This document shows, piece after piece, positions 43,896-63,605 of a stretch of 64,000 bases of DNA. Made by a program: the position numbers and the translations under genes. The number at the start of each line of letters is the position of its first letter. Position 1 is the first letter of the stretch. Under the pieces are notes generated by a model. That model was given only the letters and a program-made list of their open reading frames with translations, had not been told where the DNA came from and did no database searches. This DNA is from a bacterium (GTDB lineage: Bacteria; Zhuqueibacterota; Zhuqueibacteria; Residuimicrobiales; Krinioviventaceae), in the NCBI GenBank assembly GCA_963693055.1, contig OY843751.1:4640001-4704000 (forward strand). The letters are read 5' to 3'.

Positions 43896-44606
43896 TTAAA
43901 ACCGATAGTTTAACAAATCCATTTTAACACCAAGGCCGCCGCAGGCATCTTGATAATAGCCAAGCTGTCCCACAGAGATTTCTTTTTTACTTCTGTTATA
44001 ATCTAAATTCGAACTTGAATTATAATAGAGCATTGAAATAGCAGGCGGTAAACCAAATGCCGCAATGAATCCCATAGCGTTCGAATCAAAATCACCTCCC
44101 AGTGAAGCGAGGGTTAATCCAATTCCCGCACCTACTCCAAACATTGTTCCAACCAAAGCACGCCAATAGGAACCATCATCAATTCTATCTTTACCAACCT
44201 TATTCACACCTATTGGTACAGCAAAAAGATATCCAACATAAGCACCCACAATGGAATAACCCAATGCTTCCAAACCACCATCTCCAGCTAGCCCTAAAAC
44301 TAAAAAACCGGTACCTCCAGCAAGTATACCCAGCGCACCACAAACTTGAGACGTAATGAATTGCTCCACATAATAATCAACAGTTAAATTATGATTCTCA
44401 AACGTCTTTGAGCTATTCAATGGATTAGAGTTCAAGTTAGTACAATATCGATCCAAATGAAATGTATTTCCTCCCTGGTAATTATAGGGAATTAACCTTA
44501 CAGAAGGATCACCGCACTCGGCAGACTCTTTCCCCAATAATGTTGCACTCGTGTTCAATAATAAACAAAACATTACAATCCTAAAACCATAATAATCCAT
44601 ATCCAC
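43896..44606 (-). CDS. Array paralog 6: exported glycine-zipper protein
   Basis: LIPYNYQG motif, GxxxG helices, tail GQLGYYQDACGGLGVKMDLLNYRF. Confidence 0.85.
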   Translation of the reverse strand: MDMDYYGFRIVMFCLLLNTSATLLGKESAECGDPSVRLIPYNYQGGNTFHLDRYCTNLNSNPLNSSKTFENHNLTVDYYVEQFITSQVCGALGILAGGTGFLVLGLAGDGGLEALGYSIVGAYVGYLFAVPIGVNKVGKDRIDDGSYWRALVGTMFGVGAGIGLTLASLGGDFDSNAMGFIAAFGLPPAISMLYYNSSSNLDYNRSKKEISVGQLGYYQDACGGLGVKMDLLNYRF

Positions 44607-44712
44607 CTCTCAAAATAACCGTATCCACATGTATTCATCTAACTTTTTTGTTTTCCCAAAATTATCGGGCTACCCTTTTCAAAAATTGATCATCCCTCCA
44701 AAAGTAACCAGA

Positions 44713-45408
44713 TCAAAACCTGTAACTCAACAAATCCATTTTAACACCGAGGCCTCCGCAGGCATCCTGATAATAGCCAAGCTGTCCCACAGAGATTTCT
44801 GGGGAATGATCAGTCTCTTTCAACTCTTTGTGATCTTGGGGTTTTGTTTTTTTATTATACATAGCCATTGAACAAATTGGGGGTAACAAAAAACCAGCTG
44901 TGATACTCAAAGTTGAATTACCGGGATTTGAATCCGTTTCCAATGCTAAAACACCAATTGCTATTGCTGTGCCTAATAGGGAACCCAACAATGCACGTTT
45001 GTAAGATCCGTTTTGCCCAAATGCTTCACCTATACCATATGATCCCAATGAAACTCCCATAGCAAACCCTGCATAAGTAGACAGCACTCCTCCGGCCATC
45101 GAACCGTCAAGAATATTAAAACCTATTAATGCTCCTGCAAATAAACCCAAACACCCCGATACTTCGGCTATAATAAATTGTCCAGCCAAATAATAACCAT
45201 CATAAAAATCTATATTTGTTGCTACAGCAGATTCACGATCATTTAATTGTGGAGATTGATATTGACACAGATTTACCGACCTCTCACCCTGATAATTGTA
45301 TGGTACCAACCGGGGAGTGTTATCGGATTTGCTTTCGGGTTCCTGTGCGTAAACCGTAAAAGAGAATGCCGTGCAGATAGTGACAAGAAACAAAAAGCGG
45401 TTTTTCAA
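44713..45408 (-). CDS. Array paralog 5: exported glycine-zipper protein
   Basis: AAGGAG RBS + TTG; LVPYNYQG; tail GQLGYYQDACGGLGVKMDLLSYRF. Confidence 0.85.
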   Translation of the reverse strand: MKNRFLFLVTICTAFSFTVYAQEPESKSDNTPRLVPYNYQGERSVNLCQYQSPQLNDRESAVATNIDFYDGYYLAGQFIIAEVSGCLGLFAGALIGFNILDGSMAGGVLSTYAGFAMGVSLGSYGIGEAFGQNGSYKRALLGSLLGTAIAIGVLALETDSNPGNSTLSITAGFLLPPICSMAMYNKKTKPQDHKELKETDHSPEISVGQLGYYQDACGGLGVKMDLLSYRF

Positions 45409-45647
45409 AATATGTCTCCTTGATAGAATTATAACCCAAACAGGAATTTCCCCATGCGTTTTTTATTTTAGTTTTTTAATCTGTAATGTATGTATGTACG
45501 AATGGATATGCTCAATGTTCCATTTTGAAACCGCGCAAATCCTGCTAAAGGCCGGGAGTACTTTTGAGAGTTCAACACTAGAAAAAAACAGCATTCAATC
45601 CTATCATCCTTAAATCCTATGAATCATAATTCAGACAGGTAACCAGA
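45409..45647. repeat. 239-bp intergenic direct repeat, copy A
   Basis: 8 mismatches by manual alignment versus 46356-46594; similarity extends into both flanking gene ends. Confidence 0.92.
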
Positions 45648-46355
45648 TCAAAACCTGTAACTCAACACATCCATTTTAACACCGAGGCCTCCGCAGGCAT
45701 CCTGATAATAGCCAAGCTGCCCCACAGTGATTTCAGGGGATAAATCAGTCTCTTTGAATTTATTGGGATATTTGGGTTTAAATTTTCTGTTATAATTTAT
45801 CATGGAACAGATTGTGGGCATAAGAAGCAATGCAGGACCTGTAAATACCGGAGTCTTGCTGTCTTTTTCTATTGCTGCTATGGTCATTCCTATACATGCC
45901 CCAAATAAAGAACCTTTCAGTGCTCGCCAATATGTACCATTTTGTACCTGTTTATAACCTGTTCCGTGTACTCCAAAAGCAACCCCTAATGTATACGACG
46001 TATACCCCACAACGATTGCAGCAGCAAGTCCATCCCATCCCTCTCTCCTGAACAAAGCTGGCCCCACGAGTACACCGGTTGTCATCCCAAGCCCACCTAC
46101 AAACTCTGCCATTAAAAATTGTTTAACAAAATATCCGACCGTAGCGCCTTGACCGGTTTCTGATAAAGGTTCGACAGAACCCTGTAAATTCAATGGACCG
46201 GGATTACACCAATACAAGTTGACAGTACTTTTGCCATGAAAATTATACGGAACCAGCCGGGGAGTATTATCGAATTTGCTTTCGGGTTCCTGTGCGTAAA
46301 CCGTAAAAGAAAATACCATACCAATACTAAGAAGAAACAACAAACTGTTTTTCAA
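45648..46355 (-). CDS. Array paralog 4: exported glycine-zipper protein
   Basis: AAGGAG RBS + TTG; LVPYNFHG; tail GQLGYYQDACGGLGVKMDVLSYRF. Confidence 0.85.
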   Translation of the reverse strand: MKNSLLFLLSIGMVFSFTVYAQEPESKFDNTPRLVPYNFHGKSTVNLYWCNPGPLNLQGSVEPLSETGQGATVGYFVKQFLMAEFVGGLGMTTGVLVGPALFRREGWDGLAAAIVVGYTSYTLGVAFGVHGTGYKQVQNGTYWRALKGSLFGACIGMTIAAIEKDSKTPVFTGPALLLMPTICSMINYNRKFKPKYPNKFKETDLSPEITVGQLGYYQDACGGLGVKMDVLSYRF

Positions 46356-46594
46356 AATATATCTCCTTAATAGATTTATAACCCAAACAGGAATTTCCCC
46401 ATGCGTTTTTTATTTTAATTTTTTAATCTGTAATGTATGTATGTACGAATGGATATGATCAATGTTCCATTTTGAAACCGCGCAAATCCTGCTAAAGGCC
46501 GGGAGTACTTTTGAGAGTTCAACACTAGAAAAAAACAGCATTCAATCCTATCATCCTTAAATCCTATAAATCATAATTCAGACAGGAAACCACA
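46356..46594. repeat. 239-bp intergenic direct repeat, copy B
   Basis: Offset 947 bp from copy A. Confidence 0.92.
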
Positions 46595-47290
46595 TCAAAA
46601 CCTGCAACTCAACAAATCAATCTTAACGCCAGGGCCGCCGCATGCATCCTGATAATACCCAAGCTGCCCTGTAGATATTTCTGGTCCATGGGATTTAGTG
46701 TTGCCTTTATTATATAATATCATTGAAAGCGGAATCGGCAGTAGAAACGTCAATGCCGCCCCCACATTGGCTACTTCTGAACCTTGGCCCGCGATAATGG
46801 CGCCCAGCCCAATACTGGTTCCAATTGCAGATCCCATCAAGGCGCGTAAAAACGGCAAATCCTTATTATTGATGATACCAACCACATGCACACCTGTTGC
46901 AACTCCCAGAGCATATCCCGCATAAGCAAATCCAACCAGCTTTACAAAATCACTGCCTTCTTCATCATCACTGAATTCAACCCCGCTAAAGTTCACTCCT
47001 GCTGCTGTCCCCAACGCTCCCCCCAATCCTGCTATTAAAAACTGTGATATTAAATACCCGCCTTCTGGTGGTTTGCTATTTTTTACGGATATATTATCTG
47101 AATAACTGAATAAAATCGAATTCGCATGATACCGGTTTAAATCCACTCCCATATCCTTTTGCTGAATAAAGGGAATAATTCGGGCTGCATTTTCAAATGT
47201 AATACCTAAACCCGGATCGGTCGCATACACTGCCTGCGCAAATAAAAGACATACCATTAACACACTGCTAAAGCCTAATTTTTTTTTCAT
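46595..47290 (-). CDS. Array paralog 3: exported glycine-zipper protein
   Basis: Signal peptide, GxxxG helices, tail GQLGYYQDACGGPGVKIDLLSCRF. Confidence 0.85.
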   Translation of the reverse strand: MKKKLGFSSVLMVCLLFAQAVYATDPGLGITFENAARIIPFIQQKDMGVDLNRYHANSILFSYSDNISVKNSKPPEGGYLISQFLIAGLGGALGTAAGVNFSGVEFSDDEEGSDFVKLVGFAYAGYALGVATGVHVVGIINNKDLPFLRALMGSAIGTSIGLGAIIAGQGSEVANVGAALTFLLPIPLSMILYNKGNTKSHGPEISTGQLGYYQDACGGPGVKIDLLSCRF

Positions 47291-47377
47291 TCAAGCACCC
47301 CATTCCAGTTTGTAAACCCGGATTTATCCCCGGGAACCTAAAAAAATTCTATACCGATTACAAAGCAATTCCGACTA

Positions 47378-48073
47378 TTAAAATCTACAACTCAATAAAT
47401 TCATTTTAACGCCTGGTCCGCCACATGCATCCTGATAGCATCCAAACTGACCGGCAGATATTTCCACAGGACTGGTTTTATTCGCACTTGCAACAGAATC
47501 TCGTTTATTATAAAGCATTATGGAACATACAGGTGGCAGCAAAACAAGAGACGAAAGACTAATTACGGCCTGGGGCTTGTTATTATCCAATTGAGAGGCA
47601 ATGGCTATTGCCAATCCTGCTCCAATCAAAGACCCTTTTAGCGCCTTACCAAAAGAACTGGAGACATTTGCATAACTCCCAACCTTGTGCACACCAAAAG
47701 CCGAACCCAAGGCATACCCGGCATAAGCACCGATCACGACAAATTCAATACCATCCATGTCTTCACTTTGGCCATCAACAAAAGGTATGCCGCAAATTCC
47801 CCCAACAAAGGACATGACTATACCATCAATTTCTGCAGACACAAATTGTTTAATATGCAATTTCGAATTTATTTTTTTTTGTTCTTTTTGATTAAATTTG
47901 GATAATGCACTTGCAGAGTCCTGTCCGGTATTCATACTATAGAGAACAGATTTATTCTCACCGCTGCTACAAAAAGATACCGGGAATAATTTCTCAACAG
48001 CCAGGATTTTTGAGGCAAACAACAGTATAAAAATCAACAAAAAACTTGAATGTATTAACCGAATGTTCAACAT
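47378..48073 (-). CDS. Array paralog 2: exported glycine-zipper protein
   Basis: GAGGGG RBS favours ATG 48073; tail GQFGCYQDACGGPGVKMNLLSCRF. Confidence 0.85.
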   Translation of the reverse strand: MLNIRLIHSSFLLIFILLFASKILAVEKLFPVSFCSSGENKSVLYSMNTGQDSASALSKFNQKEQKKINSKLHIKQFVSAEIDGIVMSFVGGICGIPFVDGQSEDMDGIEFVVIGAYAGYALGSAFGVHKVGSYANVSSSFGKALKGSLIGAGLAIAIASQLDNNKPQAVISLSSLVLLPPVCSIMLYNKRDSVASANKTSPVEISAGQFGCYQDACGGPGVKMNLLSCRF

Positions 48074-48114
48074 TTCCCCTCTCAAATATTAATAATCGCA
48101 ATAGACAATCAGCT

Positions 48115-48870
48115 CTAAAATTGCCAGCTAAAAACATTCACATTTACAACATTACCCCTCTTTTCATCATGAGAATAGTTGAACGCATTCAGGGATAATC
48201 CTACATTCCCGCCATCAATGCTCACAACCGAATCCAGATAATTCATATGGTTGGTAATATTATAACTTGCTATAGCGCCTATGGTTGGCAAAAAAAGTGT
48301 CAAGACCGAAATACGTCCCTCATCATTAAATTCTTCATCACTATCATCATAAGCATTTTCAATCATTATTCCTATCCCTGTTCCAATTACCGCGCTGGTC
48401 AACGTCCACCAAAACGATCCGTCTCTGTCCGCCTTTTCACCGACCCTATACACACCATCCACAACCCCATATGTATAACCAGCGGATATAACATAATATC
48501 CGGTATCAGACAAATCCCAATCATTCCCCAATTGTGCAGCATATACAACCAGGGCACTTGCAAGCAGACACATTAGCCCTTCGGTTTCTGCCATTAGAAA
48601 CTGTAAACCATAATATTGAATTGAATTAAAAACACTGAGATCCTGGGCCCTGTATCCATCAGACACTGAATTGAGCTTAACATAGTCCAGACTATAGGTT
48701 TCATTACCCTGATAGTTAAAAGGAACCAAAACCGGACCATCGTCAATAGTCTTAATTTGACGGGTCATTGCAAATGTGTTTTTATTACTCTGTAAAAGGT
48801 CTTGCGCAAAAACCATTGAACAAAAAATCAGTGTTACTAAAACCCCGGCCCGTATTGATCTGAGATACAT
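48115..48870 (-). CDS. Array paralog 1 (most divergent): exported glycine-zipper protein
   Basis: LVPFNYQG, QFLMAE, GSFWW and LP...YN motifs shared with the family; different tail NVVNVNVFSWQF. Confidence 0.8.
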   Translation of the reverse strand: MYLRSIRAGVLVTLIFCSMVFAQDLLQSNKNTFAMTRQIKTIDDGPVLVPFNYQGNETYSLDYVKLNSVSDGYRAQDLSVFNSIQYYGLQFLMAETEGLMCLLASALVVYAAQLGNDWDLSDTGYYVISAGYTYGVVDGVYRVGEKADRDGSFWWTLTSAVIGTGIGIMIENAYDDSDEEFNDEGRISVLTLFLPTIGAIASYNITNHMNYLDSVVSIDGGNVGLSLNAFNYSHDEKRGNVVNVNVFSWQF

Positions 48871-52855: not shown

Positions 52856-52888
52856 AAAAAAGCACTGACAAACAGTCTTGTCAGTGCT
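52856..52888 (-). terminator. Intrinsic terminator after the VOC gene
   Basis: agcactgaca/tgtcagtgct 10-bp stem with a U-tract on the minus strand. Confidence 0.75.
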
Positions 52889-52915
52889 CAAATATTGATG
52901 TATTAAAAACCTTTT

Positions 52916-53335
52916 CTAAGCTTCTGCTTCATAGTTGACCATCCAGGTAATTCCATATTTATCTACCAGTTGACCAAACATTGCTCCCCAAAATGTTTTG
53001 CCCCAGGGCATTACTACATTCGCACCCTCTGATAGATTATTAAACCAGGTCTCTCCTTTTTTCTCATCATCTATCTGGATTATTATTTGCACATTGTTGC
53101 CGTTTTCAAGCTTGCTGCCCGGCATTATGTCTGCGCCCATCAAAAGGGCTTTACCATCAATTTTTAACGCCGAGTGCATAATCTTGTTCTGATATTCTGG
53201 CGGCATCTCAGCCTCCACAGGTGTTCCTTTAACCGTCATCGTTTCCAGTTCAGCGTCCAATGCGTTTTTATAAAAAGTCATAGCATCCAAACAGTTTCCA
53301 TCAAATGACAGGTATGGATTTATCGAGATAAACAT
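52916..53335 (-). CDS. VOC/PhnB (glyoxalase-like) family protein
   Basis: PYLSFDGNC, IMHSAL, TFWGAMFGQLVDKYGITW; GGAGG RBS. Confidence 0.9.
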   Translation of the reverse strand: MFISINPYLSFDGNCLDAMTFYKNALDAELETMTVKGTPVEAEMPPEYQNKIMHSALKIDGKALLMGADIMPGSKLENGNNVQIIIQIDDEKKGETWFNNLSEGANVVMPWGKTFWGAMFGQLVDKYGITWMVNYEAEA

Positions 53336-53456
53336 ATTTTCCTCCAAGTTTTGGGATTATAAACGCATAAAACAAATCAAAGAGCTTGAATATTCTTGTT
53401 ACAAGAAAAAAACAAATGTTTTACGTATATCTGATAAAAAAATTATAAAATTTCAA

Positions 53457-53484
53457 TTGTTTTTTAAAAAAAATGGTTTATATT
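53457..53484 (+). promoter_or_regulatory. Putative promoter of leader 1 / ilvB-1
   Basis: TTGTTT-N16-TATATT, positioned like the promoter at 55659. Confidence 0.4.
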
Positions 53485-53511
53485 TACCACCATAATAATA
53501 ATCAGAGAATA

Positions 53512-53718
53512 ATGAACACACAAAATTCCACATATTCACTTTCTTTACCCTCAGCATTTGCTAACGGGCAGGAATCTGTATGCATGTGGAAAAATCTGAA
53601 TATTATATCCTCAATAGTCAACATACCAGGTATGCTTGTGCAACACCTGGTGGTCGTCGTCCCTGTTATTCTTCTTAACCTCTTGTCTGTGGGTGTGGTG
53701 GTTCGCGTCAGCGAATAA
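53512..53718 (+). CDS. Putative attenuator leader peptide 1 (68 aa, Val/Ile-biased)
   Basis: 24 of the last 40 codons are I/L/V (12 V, 7 L, 5 I); homologous to 55721-55930; directly upstream of ilvB. Confidence 0.75.
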   Translation: MNTQNSTYSLSLPSAFANGQESVCMWKNLNIISSIVNIPGMLVQHLVVVVPVILLNLLSVGVVVRVSE

Positions 53719-53723
53719 CAACC

Positions 53724-53816
53724 CGGTGCAAGAGGAAATCTCGTAATACATCCAAACATTTAACACAATGCTTTCAACCCATCCTCTGCACCGTAAGCAC
53801 AGGTATGACTAGTTTT
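53724..53816 (+). promoter_or_regulatory. Attenuator RNA 1 (antiterminator-like stem; degenerate terminator)
   Basis: cggtgcaagagga (53724-36) pairs with tcctctgcaccg (53782-93). Confidence 0.6.
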
Positions 53817-53872
53817 GAATTATTCCAGGCATGTTCGAATTGGCATAATAACTCGTAAACGAAAGGATAGTT

Positions 53873-55594
53873 ATGACTGGTGCAGAAATGATTTTACATG
53901 CTTTAAAAAAAGAAGGCGTAAACGCGGTTTTCGGTTATCCGGGAGCCTCGGTAATCGACATTTTTGATTTACTGTATGAAGGAGAAATCCCGTTTTATCT
54001 GGTCAGACATGAACAGGGCGCGGTACACGCGGCAGACGGTTTTGCCCGCGCATCCGGCAAAGTGGGAGTTTGTCTGGCTACTTCCGGACCCGGTGCTACC
54101 AACCTGGTAACCGGTCTGGCTACAGCTCATATGGATTCTATCCCCATGGTTGCCATTACCGGGCAGGTAGCCACCCACCTGATAGGAAACGATGCGTTTC
54201 AGGAAGTCGACATGGTGGGTATCAGCAGACCCATTACCAAGCACAACTATTTGGTTAATTCAGTAAAAGACTTGCCCAAAATTTTAAAACAGGCTTTTCA
54301 TATTGCACGTAGCGGCAGGCCCGGTCCGGTTTTAATTGACATTCCCAAAGATCTTCAACGAATGGAATGTACCGTTCCCTATCCGGATAAAGTAGAAATC
54401 TCCAGCTACAAGCCAACCTTAAAAGGCCATACGCAGCAGCTTAAAAAAGCGATAACATTAATCGAACGCAGTAAAAAACCGGTCATTTACGCGGGCGGTG
54501 GCGTTATTGCCAGCGAAGCAAGCAGCGAACTGCGGACCTTTGCTGAAAAGATCAATGCTCCTGTTACAACAACCTTGATGGGATTAGGGATTTACGATGA
54601 AACCGCACCCAACGCACTAAAAATGCTGGGTATGCACGGTACCGAATATGCCAATTACTCTATTCAGGCATGCGATTTGTTAATTGCAGTTGGTGCTCGG
54701 TTTGATGACAGGGTAACCGGAAAAGTTGATAAATTTGCACCCAATGCCAAAATCATTCATATTGATATCGATCCCACAACCATCCGTAAAAACGTTCAGG
54801 TAAATATACCTATTGTTGGAGATGTAAAACATGTTCTGGCAGATCTGGTAGAAATGATTGAGCAACAAGATAAAGCAGAATGGATTTCACAGGTGCGGGA
54901 ATGGAAAGAAAAGCATCCCCTGACATTTAAAAACGATGGTTTTATTCAACCCCAATTTGTGATCGAAAAAATCGCAGAAATGACAGACCATAAAGCAATT
55001 ATTACTACCGAAGTGGGGCAGAACCAGATGTGGAGTGCACAGTTTTTCAATTTCAAACATCCGCGAACCTTTTTATCATCCGGCGGCCTGGGAACCATGG
55101 GCTATGGATTCCCCGCAGCTATTGGTGCCCAAATTGCCCACCCGGATAAAGTTGTGATTGATATTGCAGGCGACGGCAGCATTCAAATGAACATACAGGA
55201 ACTGGCAACAGCTGTTTTGTACCAAATACCCGTCAAGATTGTAATCCTTAACAATCGTTCCTTGGGCATGGTAAGACAATGGCAGGCCATATTCTATGAC
55301 AAACGATTTGCTTCAACCTGTATGCGCCGAAATGCCCAATGTCCACCGCAGTGTGAACAAACTGAAGAATTTTGCCCTACCGAATATGTGCCCAATTTCG
55401 TCAAACTGGCAAAAGCCTATGGTGCAACCGGTTTTTACGCGGACAAAGTTGAGGATGTAGTACCCACTTTGGGAAAAATGTTGAATACGCCGGGTCCTGT
55501 TGTTGTTGAATTCAAGATAGAAGCAGAAGAAAATGTTTACCCCATGGTGCCGGCTGGCGCACCTATTCATGAAATGATAAGAGGCATGGCATAA
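53873..55594 (+). CDS. ilvB: Acetolactate synthase large subunit, copy 1
   Basis: FGYPG, RHEQGA, TSGPGATN, RFDDRVTG, GDGS...NN ThDP motif. Confidence 0.96.
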   Translation: MTGAEMILHALKKEGVNAVFGYPGASVIDIFDLLYEGEIPFYLVRHEQGAVHAADGFARASGKVGVCLATSGPGATNLVTGLATAHMDSIPMVAITGQVATHLIGNDAFQEVDMVGISRPITKHNYLVNSVKDLPKILKQAFHIARSGRPGPVLIDIPKDLQRMECTVPYPDKVEISSYKPTLKGHTQQLKKAITLIERSKKPVIYAGGGVIASEASSELRTFAEKINAPVTTTLMGLGIYDETAPNALKMLGMHGTEYANYSIQACDLLIAVGARFDDRVTGKVDKFAPNAKIIHIDIDPTTIRKNVQVNIPIVGDVKHVLADLVEMIEQQDKAEWISQVREWKEKHPLTFKNDGFIQPQFVIEKIAEMTDHKAIITTEVGQNQMWSAQFFNFKHPRTFLSSGGLGTMGYGFPAAIGAQIAHPDKVVIDIAGDGSIQMNIQELATAVLYQIPVKIVILNNRSLGMVRQWQAIFYDKRFASTCMRRNAQCPPQCEQTEEFCPTEYVPNFVKLAKAYGATGFYADKVEDVVPTLGKMLNTPGPVVVEFKIEAEENVYPMVPAGAPIHEMIRGMA

Positions 55595-55658
55595 AAATAA
55601 AATATTTAAAATGATTGACGTTATTTATTTAAAAAACAAGACATAAAAATTTTTTTTA

Positions 55659-55686
55659 TTGACTTTATCAAATAATTAGTTATATT
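55659..55686 (+). promoter_or_regulatory. Putative promoter of leader 2 / ilv-leu operon
   Basis: TTGACT-N16-TATATT. Confidence 0.5.
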
Positions 55687-55720
55687 TATTAATTCAATAG
55701 TATAATATTTAGAAAAATTC

Positions 55721-55930
55721 ATGAGCACACATACGGCCACAAAATCATATCCTTTTTCAAACCCGTTAGCAATAGCTTACGGTAGGGGAGCTGTGTGCGT
55801 ACGTAATACGAATCTGAATATTCTACCATCCTTGTTAGTAAACTTACCGGGTGTGATTGTGCGACGCCTGGTGGTCGTGCCCATCATTATTCTAAACCTC
55901 TTGCTAGTGCTAATTCGCCTAAGCGAATAA
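55721..55930 (+). CDS. Putative attenuator leader peptide 2 (69 aa, Leu-biased)
   Basis: 25 of the last 38 codons are I/L/V (12 L including 5 CTA, 7 V, 6 I); ends RLSE like leader 1 (RVSE). Confidence 0.8.
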   Translation: MSTHTATKSYPFSNPLAIAYGRGAVCVRNTNLNILPSLLVNLPGVIVRRLVVVPIIILNLLLVLIRLSE

Positions 55931-55934
55931 AATA

Positions 55935-56060
55935 CATGGTGCAAGAGGAAGCCAAAAAAATTTAATACACTACACAAAGCCTAAACGACCCGGAAATCGG
56001 GAATATCCTCTGCACCATGAGACAAGGTGTTTTTTAAAATTTGATGAGGTATTTTTTTTT
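55935..56060 (+). promoter_or_regulatory. Attenuator RNA 2 (antiterminator versus terminator)
   Basis: catggtgcaagagga (55935-49) pairs with tcctctgcaccatg (56006-19); competing hairpin gcacc-atgagacaa-ggtgt + T-run (56012-35); second T-run at 56052-60. Confidence 0.7.
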
Positions 56061-56099
56061 GAGCAAAAAACAATACATACAACAAAAAAAAGGATTGTT

Positions 56100-57821
56100 A
56101 TGACTGGTGCAGAAATGATCGTTCACGCTTTAAAACAAGAGGGTGTACGTGCGTTATTCGGTTACCCGGGTGGTTCGGTAATCGATATCTTTGATGTATT
56201 GTACAATTCAGATCTTCCATTTTATCTTGTGCGGCATGAACAAGGTGCAGTCCACGCTGCAGACGGTTTTGCACGTGCATCCGGTGAAGTGGGTGTCTGC
56301 CTTGCAACTTCAGGACCGGGGGCCACAAACCTGGTGACAGGTTTAGCTACAGCTCATATGGACTCTATTCCGATGGTGGCAATAACAGGACAAGTTCATA
56401 CACATCTGATTGGTAACGATGCATTTCAAGAAGTAGACATTGTTGGCATCAGCAGACCCATTACAAAGCACAATTATCTGGTGAGTTCGGTTGATGAATT
56501 GCCTAAAATTTTGAAACAAGCATTTTATCTGGCCCGCACCGGCAGACCTGGTCCGGTATTGGTGGATATCCCCAAAGATATTCAACAAACCGAGTGCAAA
56601 GTCCCCTATCCGGATAAAGTAGAAATTCCAAGCTACAAGCCAACAATGAAGGGTCATTTGCAGCAGCTTAAAAAAGTTGCCAAAGCAATTGAACAGAGTA
56701 AACAACCCGTCATTTATGCAGGTGGTGGAGTTATAGCAAGCGAAGCAAGTAATGAACTCCGCACTTTTGCTAAAAAGATCAATGCTCCTGTAACTACAAC
56801 CCTTATGGGACTTGGAATTTATGACGAAACTGATGATGACGCATTAAAAATGCTGGGCATGCACGGTACGGAATATGCCAATTACTCTATTCAGGCATGC
56901 GATCTGTTAATTGCGGTTGGTGCTCGCTTTGATGACAGAGTTACCGGCAAAGTCGATAAATTCGCAGCCAATGCTACAATTATTCATATCGATATCGACC
57001 CTACAACTATTCGCAAAAACGTTCAGGTCAACATTCCCATTGTTGGTGATATTAAACATGTTCTTACTGATCTGAACGAGCTCATTGAACAGCAGGATAA
57101 AAAAGAATGGATGTCTCAGGTTCATGAATGGAAAGAAAAACATCCACTGGTTTACAAGAACGATGGACATATTCAGCCACAATATATCATTGAAAAACTG
57201 GCTGAAATGACTGATCACAATGCGGTTATCTCTACCGAAGTGGGTCAAAACCAGATGTGGGCGGCACAGTTTTATAATTATAAACATCCACGTACCTTTT
57301 TATCATCTGGTGGTTTGGGAACCATGGGTTACGGATTTCCCGCAGCCATTGGCGCCCAAGTTGCCCAGCCGGACAAGGTTGTTATTGACATTGCGGGTGA
57401 TGGCAGCATCCAGATGAACATACAGGAACTGGCTACCGCAGTATTGTATCAGATCCCCGTCAAGATTGTTATTCTCAATAATCGCTCACTCGGTATGGTG
57501 AGACAATGGCAGGGTATATTTTATGACAGACGCTTTTCATCTACATGCTTGCGGCGCAATGCCATGTGCCCGCCGCAATGTAAACAAACTGAGGAGTTCT
57601 GCCCGAACGAATACGTCCCAAATTTCGTCAAACTGGCAGAAGCCTATGGTGCAGCCGGACTTTATGCGGACAAAGTTGAGGATGTAGTACCCACTTTGAA
57701 AAAAATGCTGAATACTCCGGGCCCGGTTGTTGTTGAATTCAAGATAGAAGCTGAAGAAAATGTTTACCCCATGGTGCCGGCTGGTGCCCCAATCCATGAA
57801 ATGATAAGAGGAATGGCATAA
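56100..57821 (+). CDS. ilvB: Acetolactate synthase large subunit, copy 2
   Basis: Same motifs and same length (573 aa) as copy 1; overlaps the ilvN start (TAATG). Confidence 0.96.
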   Translation: MTGAEMIVHALKQEGVRALFGYPGGSVIDIFDVLYNSDLPFYLVRHEQGAVHAADGFARASGEVGVCLATSGPGATNLVTGLATAHMDSIPMVAITGQVHTHLIGNDAFQEVDIVGISRPITKHNYLVSSVDELPKILKQAFYLARTGRPGPVLVDIPKDIQQTECKVPYPDKVEIPSYKPTMKGHLQQLKKVAKAIEQSKQPVIYAGGGVIASEASNELRTFAKKINAPVTTTLMGLGIYDETDDDALKMLGMHGTEYANYSIQACDLLIAVGARFDDRVTGKVDKFAANATIIHIDIDPTTIRKNVQVNIPIVGDIKHVLTDLNELIEQQDKKEWMSQVHEWKEKHPLVYKNDGHIQPQYIIEKLAEMTDHNAVISTEVGQNQMWAAQFYNYKHPRTFLSSGGLGTMGYGFPAAIGAQVAQPDKVVIDIAGDGSIQMNIQELATAVLYQIPVKIVILNNRSLGMVRQWQGIFYDRRFSSTCLRRNAMCPPQCKQTEEFCPNEYVPNFVKLAEAYGAAGLYADKVEDVVPTLKKMLNTPGPVVVEFKIEAEENVYPMVPAGAPIHEMIRGMA

Positions 57822-58309
57822 TGAGACATATTATTAATTTAGAAGTCGAAAACAATCCGGGTGTACTGGCAAGGATATCAGGACTTTTCAGCGCGCGCGG
57901 ATTCAACATCGAGGCCATTTCGGTTGGAAAACCCGAAACAAATATGACCTCGCGTATGACCCTCGTAGTTAGAGGAAATGATGAAGTTATCGAACAGGTC
58001 AGTAAACAACTCAATAAACTCATTGATGTAATACGTGTAACCGACGTTACCAGCAATTATTATGTCAGCCGTGATCTGGTATTGGTCAAAGTTACTTGTC
58101 CACCGGCAAAACGTACCGAAATCTCTCAACTGATCGGTATTTTTGATGCCAAGGTTGTGGATATCAGCAACAAAACCATGACACTGGAACTGGCAGGCAG
58201 TGAAGCCAAAGTTAACGCCTTTATTGAAACCATTCGACCTTATGGAGTTAAAGAACTTGCCCGCTCTGGAACCATTGCCATGTTGCGGGATTCAAACGGA
58301 AAAATCTAA
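57821..58309 (+). CDS. ilvN: Acetolactate synthase small regulatory subunit
   Basis: ENNPGVLARISGLFSARGFNI ACT domain; KQLNKLIDV. Confidence 0.96.
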   Translation: MRHIINLEVENNPGVLARISGLFSARGFNIEAISVGKPETNMTSRMTLVVRGNDEVIEQVSKQLNKLIDVIRVTDVTSNYYVSRDLVLVKVTCPPAKRTEISQLIGIFDAKVVDISNKTMTLELAGSEAKVNAFIETIRPYGVKELARSGTIAMLRDSNGKI

Positions 58310-58326
58310 CAAACACTATAATTTAA

Positions 58327-59331
<1,005 letters not shown>

Positions 59332-59342
59332 TAGAGGTTATT

Positions 59343-60884
59343 ATGGATAAAAATCGCGTAGTGGTATTCGACACAACCTTGCGCGATGGTGAACAATCAC
59401 CGGGTGCAAGTTTGGATGTACCCGACAAGGTAGCCATTGCACATCAATTAGCACGTTTAAAAGTAGATGTAATCGAGGCGGGCTTTCCGGTATCATCGGA
59501 AGCCCAGTTTAATGCGGTGAAATTGATTGCTCATGAAGTAAAAGGACCGGTAATTGCGGCTCTTGCCCGATGTGTCGATCTGGATCTGGATAAAGCGGGC
59601 GAAGCCTTGAAAGGAGCAGAAAAACCGCGTATTCATACGTTTGTTGCAACTTCAAAAATACATTTGGAAAAGAAATTCCGTAAATCTGAAGATGAAATCC
59701 TGGAAATGGCTGTTGCCGGGGTAAAACGGGCAAGAAATTACTGCGATGACGTAGAGTTCTCTCCCGAAGACTCGGCACGTACCGGTAAAGAGTTTCTGTT
59801 TCGCATTGTTGAAGCAGCTATCAATGCCGGAGCTACAACCATCAACATTCCGGATACTGTGGGATATTCAAATCCCGAAGAATTCGGTAACTTGATCAAT
59901 CAAATCATGAACACGGTACCCAATGTAGACAAGGCCATTATCAGCGTTCACTGCCACAACGACTTGGGTTTGGCTGTTGCCAATACCCTGGCAGGTGTTC
60001 GTAATGGTGCACGTCAAATTGAAGTCACAGTAAACGGTATTGGTGAACGCGCGGGCAATGCTTCTCTCGAAGAAGTAGTTATGGCATTAAAAACCCGTCA
60101 TAACTATTATAATATCAATACCAACATAAACAGTCAAGAGATCATAAACACCAGTCGTATGGTTAGTAACCTGACAGGTATTATGGTGCAGCCCAACAAG
60201 GCAATTGTAGGTGCAAACGCGTTTGCTCACGAATCCGGTATTCATCAGGATGCCATGATCAAAGATGCCAGTACCTACGAGATCATGACTCCCCACGAAA
60301 TAGGTCTCGATGCAAGTAAAATTGTATTGGGTCGTCATTCCGGCCGTCATGGTTTGAAACAGCGTTTGATTGAACTGGGTTATCATCTGAATCCGGAAGA
60401 ATTGAACCATGTTTATGAAAGATTTCTTGAAATTGCTGATAAAAAGAAGGAAGTCTTTGACGAAGATCTCATTGCACTGGTTGGTGATGAATCTCAGGAT
60501 TATGAAGATGCTTATCACCTCGACTATTTTCATATACTCAGTGGCAACAAGGCTATTCCCACAGCTACTGTTGGATTGAAACACAAAGATGAAATAATTC
60601 AGGATGCTTCCGTTGGTGATGGCCCCATTGACGCAGCTTATAAAGCTATCGACAAGATAGTGAATGTTCCCCTGAAACTGGCAGAATATTCTTTACGCGG
60701 TGTAACCGGTGGTAAAGAAGCAATGGGTGAAGTGGTAGTGCGCGTAATTCAGGACGGCAAAAAATTCCTGGGTCGCGGTGCCAGCACGGATGTCATTGAA
60801 GCAAGTATCAGGGCCTATCTTAATGCTGTGAACAAAAGCATGCATATGCATTCAAAAACCACGGAAGAAAAAGCAGAATTATAG
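59343..60884 (+). CDS. leuA: 2-isopropylmalate synthase
   Basis: [30 protein letters not shown], regulatory domain. Confidence 0.96.
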
Positions 60885-60892
60885 GACATACA

Positions 60893-61981
60893 ATGAAAAA
60901 AGACAACTATACAATAGCAGTCCTGCCGGGAGATGGTATTGGCCCCGAAGTAGTGGCAGAGGCTGTCAAAGTTCTGGAAACCATCGCAACGACCAGTAAT
61001 TTTACCATTACTGCAAATTACGCCGATGTAGGTGGTGTTGCCATTGATAAATATGACAATCCCCTGCCAGAAGAAACACTAAATACATGTAAACAAGCAG
61101 ATGCCGTTTTACTGGGCGCAATAGGTGCCCCCCAATACGACAATCTGCCCTCAGATAAACGTCCCGAGCGCGGCCTTTTGGGTCTGCGCGCGGGCCTGGG
61201 CCTTTATGCAAATCTGCGTCCGGCCAAGGTTTACCCCAGTCTTGTAGATGCATCAAGCCTGAAACCCGAACTGGTTTCAGGTATTGATATTCTCATTGTC
61301 AGGGAATTAACGGGTGGTATCTATTTCGGCCAACCGCGCGGATTCGACGATAAAGACAATGGCCGTGGATTCAATACCATGGTTTACACAAAACACGAAG
61401 TTGAACGCATTGCCAAGATTGCATTTGATGCAGCACAAAAACGCGGTAAAAAAGTCATGTCTGTTGACAAGGCGAACGTGCTTGAAGTATCACAGTTCTG
61501 GCGGGAACAGGTTATCGACACAGCCAAAGCGTATCCCGATGTTGAACTGGATCACATGTATGTTGACAATTGCGCAATGCAGCTTGTTCGCTGGCCCAAA
61601 CAATTTGATGTTATTGTTACAGGAAACCTGTTTGGAGATATTCTCAGCGATGAAGCATCCATGCTAACAGGCTCTCTCGGCATGCTTCCTTCTGCCAGTA
61701 TGGGTGATGGAACAGCAATGTATGAACCCGTGCACGGTTCCGCGCCTGATATTGCAGGACAAAGTATCGCGAACCCCATTGCAACCATAGCATCAGTAGC
61801 CATGATGTTACGTCATTCAATGGACCGCGCCACAGAAGCAGATGCGCTTGAACAGGCTATCGATGAAATTCTCAAAGATGGTTACCGTACCAAAGATATT
61901 GCCCTTGCAGGTGAAGACACCGTCTCTACCACTCAAATGGGAGATCTGGTTGCGGAAAAGGTTAAATCTTTACTAAATTAA
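60893..61981 (+). CDS. leuB: 3-isopropylmalate dehydrogenase
   Basis: [41 protein letters not shown]. Confidence 0.97.
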
Positions 61982-62006
61982 CAAATATGAATAATGGAGG
62001 CATCAT

Positions 62007-63605
62007 ATGCCGGAACAACTGATCATATATGATACAACACTACGTGATGGTTCACAAAGTGAAGGAATCTCGTTCTCGGCACAGGACAAGTTAATGATCG
62101 CCCAACGTCTCGATGACTTTGGCGTAGATTATATTGAAGGGGGTTGGCCTGGTTCTAACCCCAAAGATATGGAATTCTTTACCCGTGCCGTTGATGTTGA
62201 ATGGAAAAATGCCAAAATTGCGGCATTCGGCAGTACCCGACGTGTAAAATCCAAAGTGTGGGAAGACGCCAATATAAAATTACTGCTGGAAGCCAAAACA
62301 CCGGTAGTAACCATATTTGGCAAAACCTGGGACTTGCATGTAACCGAAGGGTTACGAACAACTCTGGATATTAACCTTGAATTAATTCGGGATTCTATTG
62401 CCTATTTAAAGGATCAGGGTAAAGAGGTGGTATATGATGCTGAACATTTTTTCGACGGATACAAAGACAATCCCGAGTATGCGCTAAAAACGCTCGAGGT
62501 TGCCAAAGATGCTGGTGCGGACTGCCTGGTGTTGTGTGATACCAATGGCGGCACCCTGCCCAGCGAAGTAAAATCCATTATTGATGCGGTTTATGCAACC
62601 AATATTGACATCCCACTCGGCATGCATGCGCATAACGATGGTGATGTTGCTGTTGCGAACAGCATTGTTGCGCTGGAAAACAAAATCATGCATATTCAGG
62701 GCACAATGAATGGTTATGGTGAACGCTGTGGAAACGCAAATTTGTGCACCATCATTGCAAATGCCGCGTTAAAAATGAATATCGGCACATCTGCCAAACT
62801 CAAACTCAACGAACTGACACAATTATCGCGATATGTCAGTGAGATGGCCAATCTCCCCCACCGGGAAGAAATGGCTTTTGTAGGCAACAGTGCTTTTGCT
62901 CACAAAGGCGGTATCCATGTTAGCGCGATACGTCGTAATCGTCGTACGTATGAACATATTGATCCGCTAACCATTGGAAACCGTCAGCGTGTGCTCATTT
63001 CTGACCAGTCCGGTCAAAGTAATATTCTGCAAAAAGCGGAAGAAATGGGCCTTGATCTTTCAAGCAATAAAGAAGCAGTACATGAAATTGTCAATCGCCT
63101 CAAAGACATGGAGCATCTCGGCTATCAGTACGAAGGTGCAGATGGATCTTTTGAGATATTGATTAACAAATCAACCGGCGAGCACAAAGAATTTTTTGAC
63201 CTTGAAAGTGCCCGTGTGATTATTGACAAGCACGAAAAACTCGGTAAACTCTATTCAGAAGCCATGGTAAAAATGAAAGTTGGCGGTAAAGTAGAACATA
63301 CCGCAGCCGAAGGCAATGGTCCGATTGACGCGCTAGACAATGCCATGCGTAAAGCATTGGAACCCTTTTATCCATCACTGAAAAAGATAAAATTAATAGA
63401 TTACAAGGTGCGTGTATTAAACAGCACCCAGGGAACAGCAGCCAAAGTCCGTGTATACATTGAATCTCAGGCTGATGACATGATTTGGGGAACCGTAGGT
63501 GTTTCTGAAAATATCATCGAGGCAAGCTGGCAGGCGCTGGTTGACCGCATCAACTATATGCTGTTAAAGCTGGAAAAGAACAATCTAAATGGTGCAGCAG
63601 ACTGA
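62007..63605 (+). CDS. cimA: Citramalate synthase
   Basis: DTTLRDGSQ, EGGWPGSNPKD, DAEHFFDG, HAHND, AHKGGIH. Confidence 0.92.
   Translation: MPEQLIIYDTTLRDGSQSEGISFSAQDKLMIAQRLDDFGVDYIEGGWPGSNPKDMEFFTRAVDVEWKNAKIAAFGSTRRVKSKVWEDANIKLLLEAKTPVVTIFGKTWDLHVTEGLRTTLDINLELIRDSIAYLKDQGKEVVYDAEHFFDGYKDNPEYALKTLEVAKDAGADCLVLCDTNGGTLPSEVKSIIDAVYATNIDIPLGMHAHNDGDVAVANSIVALENKIMHIQGTMNGYGERCGNANLCTIIANAALKMNIGTSAKLKLNELTQLSRYVSEMANLPHREEMAFVGNSAFAHKGGIHVSAIRRNRRTYEHIDPLTIGNRQRVLISDQSGQSNILQKAEEMGLDLSSNKEAVHEIVNRLKDMEHLGYQYEGADGSFEILINKSTGEHKEFFDLESARVIIDKHEKLGKLYSEAMVKMKVGGKVEHTAAEGNGPIDALDNAMRKALEPFYPSLKKIKLIDYKVRVLNSTQGTAAKVRVYIESQADDMIWGTVGVSENIIEASWQALVDRINYMLLKLEKNNLNGAAD

Follow-up and report, generated by a model that had tools for sequence, protein, structure and literature searches.

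The leader peptides that precede the branched-chain amino-acid (BCAA) operons of E. coli are short, the accessible part of one source listing 32 aa with 15 BCAA residues for ilvGMEDA (ilvL), 32 aa with 11 for ilvBN (ivbL) and 28 aa with four Leu for leu (leuL) (PMC6123439). In Salmonella, CUA is the tested control codon of the leu attenuator, according to the available portion of another source (PMC1183508). The present analysis concerns two leader open reading frames (ORFs) of 68 and 69 codons, as against 32, 32 and 28 aa, and the claim of a previous sequence-only reading of this DNA that these attenuator-type leaders are about twice the enteric length holds. They precede ilvB1 and ilvB2, twin genes for the acetolactate synthase large subunit, in a window of 64,000 nucleotides (positions 4,640,001 to 4,704,000 of contig OY843751.1, assembly GCA_963693055.1; coordinates below count from its first letter) from a bacterium of the order Residuimicrobiales. 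Judging from comparison with relatives, it is quite likely that both ORFs are copies of one conserved leader, which would act as a ribosome-mediated transcription attenuator for BCAA synthesis. The end of each ORF contains region 1, which can pair with region 2 just past the stop codon; region 2 may instead pair with region 3, which lies beyond a spacer. The two sets of elements are called att1 and att2.

The E. coli ilvGMEDA, ilvBN and leu systems share with this locus a BCAA-rich leader ORF (standing before acetohydroxyacid synthase, AHAS, genes in the ilv operons), alternative helices and CUA control codons, and two paralogous AHAS operons with differently composed leaders are already known there. 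E. coli ilvBN responds to Val and Leu. Here, in contrast to E. coli, the leaders have 42-69 codons with a neutral N-terminal half, the predicted antiterminator is a short helix that closes a loop of 35-63 nt, the terminator is weak or missing, and the paralogues are a recent tandem pair. A long leader ORF is also present in the pyrBI attenuator of E. coli, where pyrL has 44 codons and translation, not the peptide, matters; that attenuator senses UTP via polymerase pausing instead of charged tRNA and has a strong intrinsic terminator.

Likewise, the actinobacterial ilvB attenuators (M. tuberculosis ilvB1, Corynebacterium ilvBNC) have an upstream ORF (uORF) with BCAA codons, and a ribosome at its stop masks the antiterminator arm; the part of the source available describes a leader RNA of 168 nt that carries four control codons and is terminated independently of Rho (PMC13236596), whereas the leader here spans about 360-410 nt with a tract of ~25 codons. 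Set against the accessible part of a survey of ilvB attenuators, the system here would work like the enteric and actinobacterial BCAA attenuators (PMC1262725). In uORF-dependent Rho attenuators (Salmonella mgtA/mgtL, corA/corL and tufB; E. coli tnaC and speFL), translation of the leader similarly picks the folds that expose or hide a Rho utilization (rut) site; as far as the available parts of two sources go, these sense Mg2+, EF-Tu or a tunnel ligand (PMC5314796, PMC12360218), whereas the use of Rho at this locus is a prediction. In the part of a Rho-attenuator review table that could be covered, his is the sole amino-acid biosynthetic operon (possibly mixed) and no BCAA operon is listed. What is new here is the length of the leader, a loop-closing antiterminator with a C-rich spacer, a weak terminator, the order-wide occurrence and an echo of the arrangement before ilvD.

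Distribution and translation of the leader

The long leader is, from the genomes compared, an order-wide conserved ilvB leader, found in relatives titled KSB1, and not a quirk of duplication. Matches to ilvB occur in 40 of the 41 genomes searched. Fifty upstream regions were examined, 42 from close ilvB orthologues and eight from a 53%-identical paralogue, which is part of the ilvD operon and lacks a leader. The sequence-only reading suggested looking for the ORF upstream of ilvB in related genomes, and a long ORF rich in Ile, Leu and Val (ILV) with both motifs is indeed present in 40 of the 42 orthologous regions. The two misses are a region with an assembly gap and the second copy of a tandem ilvB pair in genome G004, a very recent pair (L008, G004:C16:328731-332208) with 37 nt and no leader between the copies. 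The working set holds 42 leaders (27 after removal of near-duplicates) of 42-69 codons, with a median of 55; the length is ancestral to the order and is not a product of the duplication.

BLAST of the leader DNA against 125 genomes of the class returned the sister genome (G001) and one weak match only, because the leaders diverge too fast, and they were then recovered via ilvB. Scanning all species representatives for the exact pattern gave 55 matches, of which 30 are not upstream of ilvB and were dropped as chance, while 25 are upstream of ilvB and add two new leaders. Seven of these 25 are titled candidate division KSB1; the rest are titled 'bacterium' or carry automatic Bacteroidota labels, and their sequences are identical or close to the same-order set. 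The simple 1:2 pattern is found in 37 of 42 same-order genomes (in two of which it is not at ilvB and may be chance) versus 14 of 124 others in the phylum, the latter being near the reversed-pattern control. The literature covered, subscription journals (e.g., proteobacterial attenuator surveys) excluded, holds no report on KSB1 attenuators, and neither 'attenuat' nor 'leader' occurs in the main text of a KSB1 overview (PMC9012183).

Some relatives differ in layout. At L072 about 3 nt separate the leader ATG from the predicted start site, and the mRNA may thus be leaderless; the gap to ilvB is 319 nt. In family f2 (G038, G040, G023, G025, G027, G033, G039), ilvD and ilvB are no more than a few kb apart and on opposite strands, and the two genes prove divergent wherever both 5' ends can be located (e.g., G038:C169, G040:C26, G023:C88).

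The two ORFs are homologous and located as the sequence-only reading had placed them. Aligned from promoter to ilvB start, the leader regions are identical in 79% of columns, and all five ORF-internal gaps are multiples of three. The pattern of change indicates that the long frame is under selection and the N-terminal peptide sequence is not. In a start-blind window set by the promoter alone (677 codons), five stops fall in the leader frame, whereas the other two frames have 31 and 30. Reading from the predicted start site, the first ATG is in frame, with no stop ahead of that of the leader, in 15 of the 22 leaders that have a promoter match; the five of 27 without one are excluded from this test. 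As the leader starts were picked by hand, these start-blind tests outweigh the stated lengths. Of the 42 leaders, 17 have a Shine-Dalgarno (SD) 4-mer ahead of the long start. Short leaders of 22-28 aa from an internal ATG or GTG were considered and rejected: the starts are not conserved (ATG 53632 is GTG in the sister genome), and an SD 4-mer precedes a short (15-32 aa) start at 1 of 36 loci. Among ten close pairs, the ratio of nonsynonymous to synonymous polymorphism (pN/pS) is 0.88 for the N-terminal part, 0.51 for the last 28 codons and 0.051 for ilvB, and all seven indels (7/7) are in multiples of three. The frame and length of leader 1 are the same in the sister genome (L051). The first half of the leader likely need only be translatable, its peptide having no role.

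It is very improbable that the ORFs instead yield small membrane proteins, or peptides that, while nascent, stall the ribosome via their RxSE end or an exposed N-terminus. The C-terminal stretch is hydrophobic, with the pN/pS of 0.51 just given, and the ribosome exit tunnel holds about 30-40 residues, so the N-terminus of a longer leader could emerge. However, the N-terminal pN/pS is 0.88, neither Pfam nor NCBIfam matches the leaders, the residues that hardly vary are encoded by the codons that make up region 1, and the enrichment of rare codons has no protein-level reason. RxSE, previously offered as an arrest motif, occurs in 4 of 42 leaders only (two copies in each of this genus's two genomes), and there are 29 different C-terminal pentapeptides among the 42; as RxSE is not conserved at the amino-acid level, the arrest motif is rejected. 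Together with the pN/pS values, this makes a small-protein role unlikely.

ILV content climbs from below 0.2 to 0.5-0.74 across the last ~25 codons. CTA makes up 59 of 194 Leu codons (30%) in the leader tracts versus 14 of 762 (2%) in ilvB of the same loci, its share genome-wide being 4.9%, and it peaks 6-10 codons ahead of region 1; the proposal of CTA as a control codon is supported across the family. The counts reported for the twins, three ATA and no CTA in leader 1 and five CTA in leader 2, are correct. The suggestion that ATA serves as an Ile signal in leader 1 fails, since ATA is 24% of Ile codons genome-wide, the leaders are not enriched in it (14/110 vs 117/923), and the last 30 codons of leader 1 contain a single Ile, the lowest count of all (25 single-copy relatives have 2-8).

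Alternative helices and termination

Regions 1:2 and 2:3 form, in the aligned leaders, conserved, covarying and mutually exclusive helices at the ORF end, as in classical attenuators; these RNA helices, the weak terminator and the C-rich spacer are additions to the earlier reading. Region 1 is contained in the codons X-L-L. In the 27 leaders, 216 of 216 cells of the 1:2 helix are paired, with one compensatory change, and 22 of 500 shuffles score as high; covariation is thin here because the helix is nearly invariant. In the 2:3 helix 88% of the cells are paired and four cells are changed on both sides, none of 500 shuffles scores as high, and slid controls give 19-53%. The core of region 2 begins 6-13 nt past the stop in all 42 leaders, within the ribosome footprint, and region 3 lies 35-63 nt beyond region 2 in all but one. 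When 2:3 forms, region 3, which is rich in pyrimidines, is paired, and the spacer becomes a loop that itself stays unpaired.

With charged tRNAs plentiful, the ribosome would get to the stop and mask region 2. On its release, 1:2 would form while the polymerase is still crossing the spacer and region 3 is not yet made; region 3 and the spacer would then remain free and transcription would end, through a weak 3:4 hairpin with a U-tract where present (att2, U6 and U9) and/or through Rho on the C-rich spacer. With Leu, Ile or Val short, the ribosome would lag in the tract, 2:3 would form and close the spacer into a loop, and read-through would follow. Stalls anywhere along the tract may antiterminate, which fits the placement of CTA upstream of region 1. 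According to the available portion of a study of a race model, a long tract and a long spacer would sharpen the response (PMC1183508).

Several observations weigh against this mechanism. In equilibrium folding of both twins, 2:3 is dominant at almost every ribosome position (P mostly 0.7-0.9), and its probability drops only with the ribosome at the stop and a footprint of 10-13 nt, to 0.33-0.55 at 13 nt as against 0.89 at 7 nt. The stability of 2:3 equals or exceeds that of 1:2 (medians -22.6 vs -19.3). As 2:3 dominates these folds with no clean switch, the OFF state must be kinetic. The standard model needs a pause site, and no conserved one was found in the family; a consensus pause follows the best 5' hairpin in 6 of 27 leaders versus 9.1 expected, and a motif search came out barely over its controls. 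One leader (L015) has no clear region 3, and the long starts of the twins both lack a clear SD. The leaders share ancestry, and their counts and P values overstate independence. Similar ilvB leader codons were mutated in Streptomyces coelicolor with no effect (PMC1262725).

A hairpin of -13 kcal/mol lies 25-55 nt ahead of region 1 in both twins, and the family-wide signal of a hairpin at this place is modest (mean z -0.84). A conserved 5' pause hairpin with a G-10/Y-1/G+1 element, tried as the cause of the leader length, is not supported.

Given the composition of the spacers and the weak or missing terminators, it is just short of an even prospect that termination runs partly through Rho loading. 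The spacers of the 27 leaders hold 371 C and 111 G, with C above G in 26 of 27; they are nearly unfolded and carry 3-14 pyrimidine-C (YC) dinucleotides each. Their median C-G skew exceeds that of 99% of 1563 intergenic windows of the host genome; the att1 spacer is in the top 0.5% of these windows, and the skew of att2 is reached by 15.7%. Rho is encoded in the host genome (PF07497 above cut-off at G000:C1:114130). Against a part for Rho, att2 has U-tracts and a spacer of ordinary C content, so that Rho could be dispensable there; a spacer rich in C and poor in G may also serve just to avoid structure.

A fully classical system is a real possibility at somewhat less than even chances. In it, weak 3:4 hairpins aided by NusA/NusG would terminate transcription by the intrinsic route alone, and the unstructured spacer would act only as a timer that draws out the race between ribosome and polymerase. 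The U6 and U9 tracts of att2 directly follow region-3 hairpins, and a U-tailed hairpin overlapping region 3 reaches -4 kcal/mol or better in 11 of 27 leaders. Models give higher sensitivity when control codons and transcribed bases are numerous, in the accessible part of PMC1183508, and tested ilvB attenuators elsewhere have intrinsic terminators, in that of PMC13236596. However, such a hairpin attains -7 kcal/mol in 3 of 27 leaders and -10 in 0 of 27, and is absent in nine, whereas the his and trp attenuators of the host genome have hairpins of -19 and -20 with U-tracts. The bias of C over G, above 99% of the background windows, and the ilvD leaders, likewise without a strong U-tailed terminator, also speak against purely intrinsic termination. 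The att1 of the sister genome has a slightly better U-tailed hairpin (-6.3) than the one here (-5.4).

The his attenuator (a 15 aa leader with a His run) and the trp attenuator (a 23 aa leader with WWW-R-W) are textbook cases with strong intrinsic terminators, located on the minus strand of G000:C1 at about 2919100-2919260 and 1871390-1871590; two terminator-like hairpins stand in a row 3' of the trp leader. A third long BCAA leader (L139, G000:C1:458025-458293), of 54 aa with four CTA in its tract, lies ahead of ilvD-ilvB3-leuC and has a different short helix pair past its stop and no U-tailed terminator (best -3.5). An ILV-rich upstream ORF is found at 21 of 30 ilvD loci, mostly of 29-55 codons and with 42 CTA among 136 Leu, in a screen that was looser than the ilvB one and had no chance control.

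Control at ilvB translation (by occlusion of the ribosome site) or at mRNA decay, in place of transcription termination, is improbable. The weak terminators and the extra hairpins nearer the ilvB start in some relatives would suit it, but regions 2 and 3 are upstream of the ilvB start by 80-150 nt, and the folds examined, which were not a systematic test, showed no conserved pairing with the ilvB ribosome site.

The twin copies and the shift to valine

The enzymes ilvB1 and ilvB2 are identical at 87% of amino acids and 80% of nucleotides. In a FastTree phylogeny (full-length proteins from 28 loci, three copies of the host genome and two partial ones), they form a clade with support 1.0 that is shared solely with the sister genome, and the branch to ilvB1 is the longer one; the tandem pair of G004 is an independent duplication. 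Over the last 30 codons, 25 single-copy relatives have 0-9 Val, 2-8 Ile, 6-13 Leu and 1-4 CTA. The counts of leader 2 (Table 1) are inside all these ranges and those of leader 1 are at or beyond the edge on all four, and therefore att2 is taken as ancestral and att1 as derived. In the stretch that begins four codons ahead of region 1 and runs to the stop, att1 has six Val and the others 0-2, and the codons inserted after region 1 in att1 are Val-rich in both genomes.

Regulatory subfunctionalisation had been proposed for the twins. It stands insofar as their leaders differ in composition after a genus-level duplication; it does not stand as a symmetric division, since copy 2 is ancestral and copy 1 gained Val and lost CTA and Ile. 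On this scheme att2 would have kept the ancestral tuning to Ile and Leu-CTA, and att1 would have shifted to Val. An amino-acid tuning of the twins is plausible, and it is slightly favoured, from codon content, that att1 makes the extra ilvB1 respond mainly to valine shortage. Against this, both twins keep a Val run and Leu codons upstream, so the tuning may be quantitative.

That the twins are not differently tuned, the Val shift of leader 1 being drift in a weakened, half-redundant copy with a decaying promoter and terminator, is quite possible though short of an even chance. P1 has a poor -35, the U-tract of att1 is broken, ilvB1 has the longer branch, and there is a single duplication event seen in two genomes. 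Both IlvB enzymes retain the Trp of the RQWQ motif, a residue with a role in 2-ketobutyrate preference, and hence no matching change in substrate preference is seen. Nevertheless, ilvB1 is intact in both genomes, which also share the Val-rich insertion described above, and att1 retains an open frame of 68 codons, perfect 1:2 and 2:3 helices and a spacer richer in C than any other. Taken whole, the scheme of an order-wide Rho-dependent BCAA attenuator that reads a tract of ~25 codons, loops out the Rho site in its antiterminator, serves ilvB and ilvD beside classical his and trp attenuators, and gave rise to a Val-specific ilvB booster after duplication is rather unlikely to be right in every part.

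Layout of the locus and wider meaning

Table 1. Predicted and annotated features of the twin ilvB locus (window coordinates; energies in kcal/mol).
Feature	Position	Strand	Description
P1	53457..53484	+	predicted sigma-70-like promoter TTGTTT-16-TATATT, weak -35; aligned to P2
Leader ORF 1	53512..53718	+	ATG 53512, TAA 53718; 68 aa; last 30 codons: 11 Val, 1 Ile, 6 Leu, 0 CTA
Leader 1 internal hairpin	53625..53651	+	-13.0, 5' of region 1; candidate pause hairpin; homologue in leader 2
att1 region 1	53679..53686	+	within N-L-L codons; partner is region 2
att1 region 2	53725..53736	+	starts 7 nt past leader stop; partner is region 1 or region 3
att1 spacer	53737..53780	+	44 nt, 13 C : 2 G, unstructured; candidate Rho loading site
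att1 region 3	53782..53792	+	predicted antiterminator partner of region 2; duplex -20.3; covariation
att1 weak 3:4 hairpin	53780..53816	+	broken U-tract; best U-tailed hairpin -5.4
ilvB1	53873..55594	+	acetolactate synthase large subunit, 573 aa; TIGR00118 above cut-off
P2	55659..55686	+	predicted sigma-70-like promoter TTGACT-16-TATATT; consensus scan (10 of 12); position conserved in relatives
Leader ORF 2	55721..55930	+	ATG 55721, TAA 55930; 69 aa; last 30 codons: 7 Val, 5 Ile, 8 Leu, 4 CTA
Leader 2 internal hairpin	55846..55872	+	-13.0; homologous to 53625-53651
att2 region 1	55897..55904	+	
att2 region 2	55938..55949	+	starts 8 nt past leader stop
att2 spacer	55950..56004	+	55 nt, 13 C : 8 G; not exceptional alone
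att2 region 3	56006..56016	+	duplex -19.5
att2 weak intrinsic terminator candidates	56007..56060	+	3:4 hairpin 56012-56030 (-5.6) with U6 (56030-56035); extended hairpin to 56049 (-6.7) with U9 (56052-56060)
ilvB2	56100..57821	+	acetolactate synthase large subunit; TIGR00118 above cut-off; heads ilvB-ilvH-ilvC-leuA-leuB-cimA
ilvH, ilvC, leuA, leuB, cimA	57821..63605	+	likely co-transcribed with ilvB2

The promoters had been described as similarly placed, and promoter-like elements do stand at like distances before both leaders, a like element being predicted for 22 of the 27 non-redundant leaders. A consensus promoter scan gave no excess over shuffles (12 vs 12.3), calling P2 and not P1; because the scan matches the shuffles, support for the promoters rests on conservation. 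An 81-aa version of leader 1 (ATG 53473) has its start within the promoter-like element and would not be transcribed from P1. No terminator lies between ilvB1 and P2 (best hairpin -0.2), so that P1 transcripts may also meet att2. An Rfam search of 53200-56300 gave three chance-level matches only, all far under the gathering score, with no T-box or other Rfam leader.

Leader 2 was correctly said to head an operon with leuA and cimA, both of which are above NCBIfam cut-offs (TIGR00973 and TIGR00977, respectively); ilvH, ilvC and leuB are putative assignments made from their translations. From 63605 of the window onward (G000:C1:4703605-4708205), apparent arginine/proline synthesis genes follow cimA with overlaps or short gaps. 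As these adjoin cimA, att2 may head an operon longer than the BCAA genes. Divergent from P1, a YjdN/PhnB-like VOC protein (below the NCBIfam cut-off) is encoded at 52916-53347 on the minus strand, and a 13-bp terminator-like hairpin at 52860-52889 follows its gene. Farther away, at 43896-48870 on the minus strand, lie six tandem paralogous ORFs of 231-251 aa with signal-peptide-like starts and glycine-rich hydrophobic cores, five of which share a C-terminus that ends in an aromatic residue (..GYYQDACGG.GVK..LLS.RF).

The attenuator reading would extend ribosome-mediated attenuation to an uncultured lineage, in which the leaders reach twice the textbook length. Such leaders could be mis-called as small proteins, or missed by searches that require short peptides and strong terminators. 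Should Rho indeed carry out termination, the system would plainly exemplify an attenuator of amino-acid biosynthesis that is wired to Rho. The tandem pair is a natural experiment, in which a few codons rewrite the amino-acid preference of a sensor.

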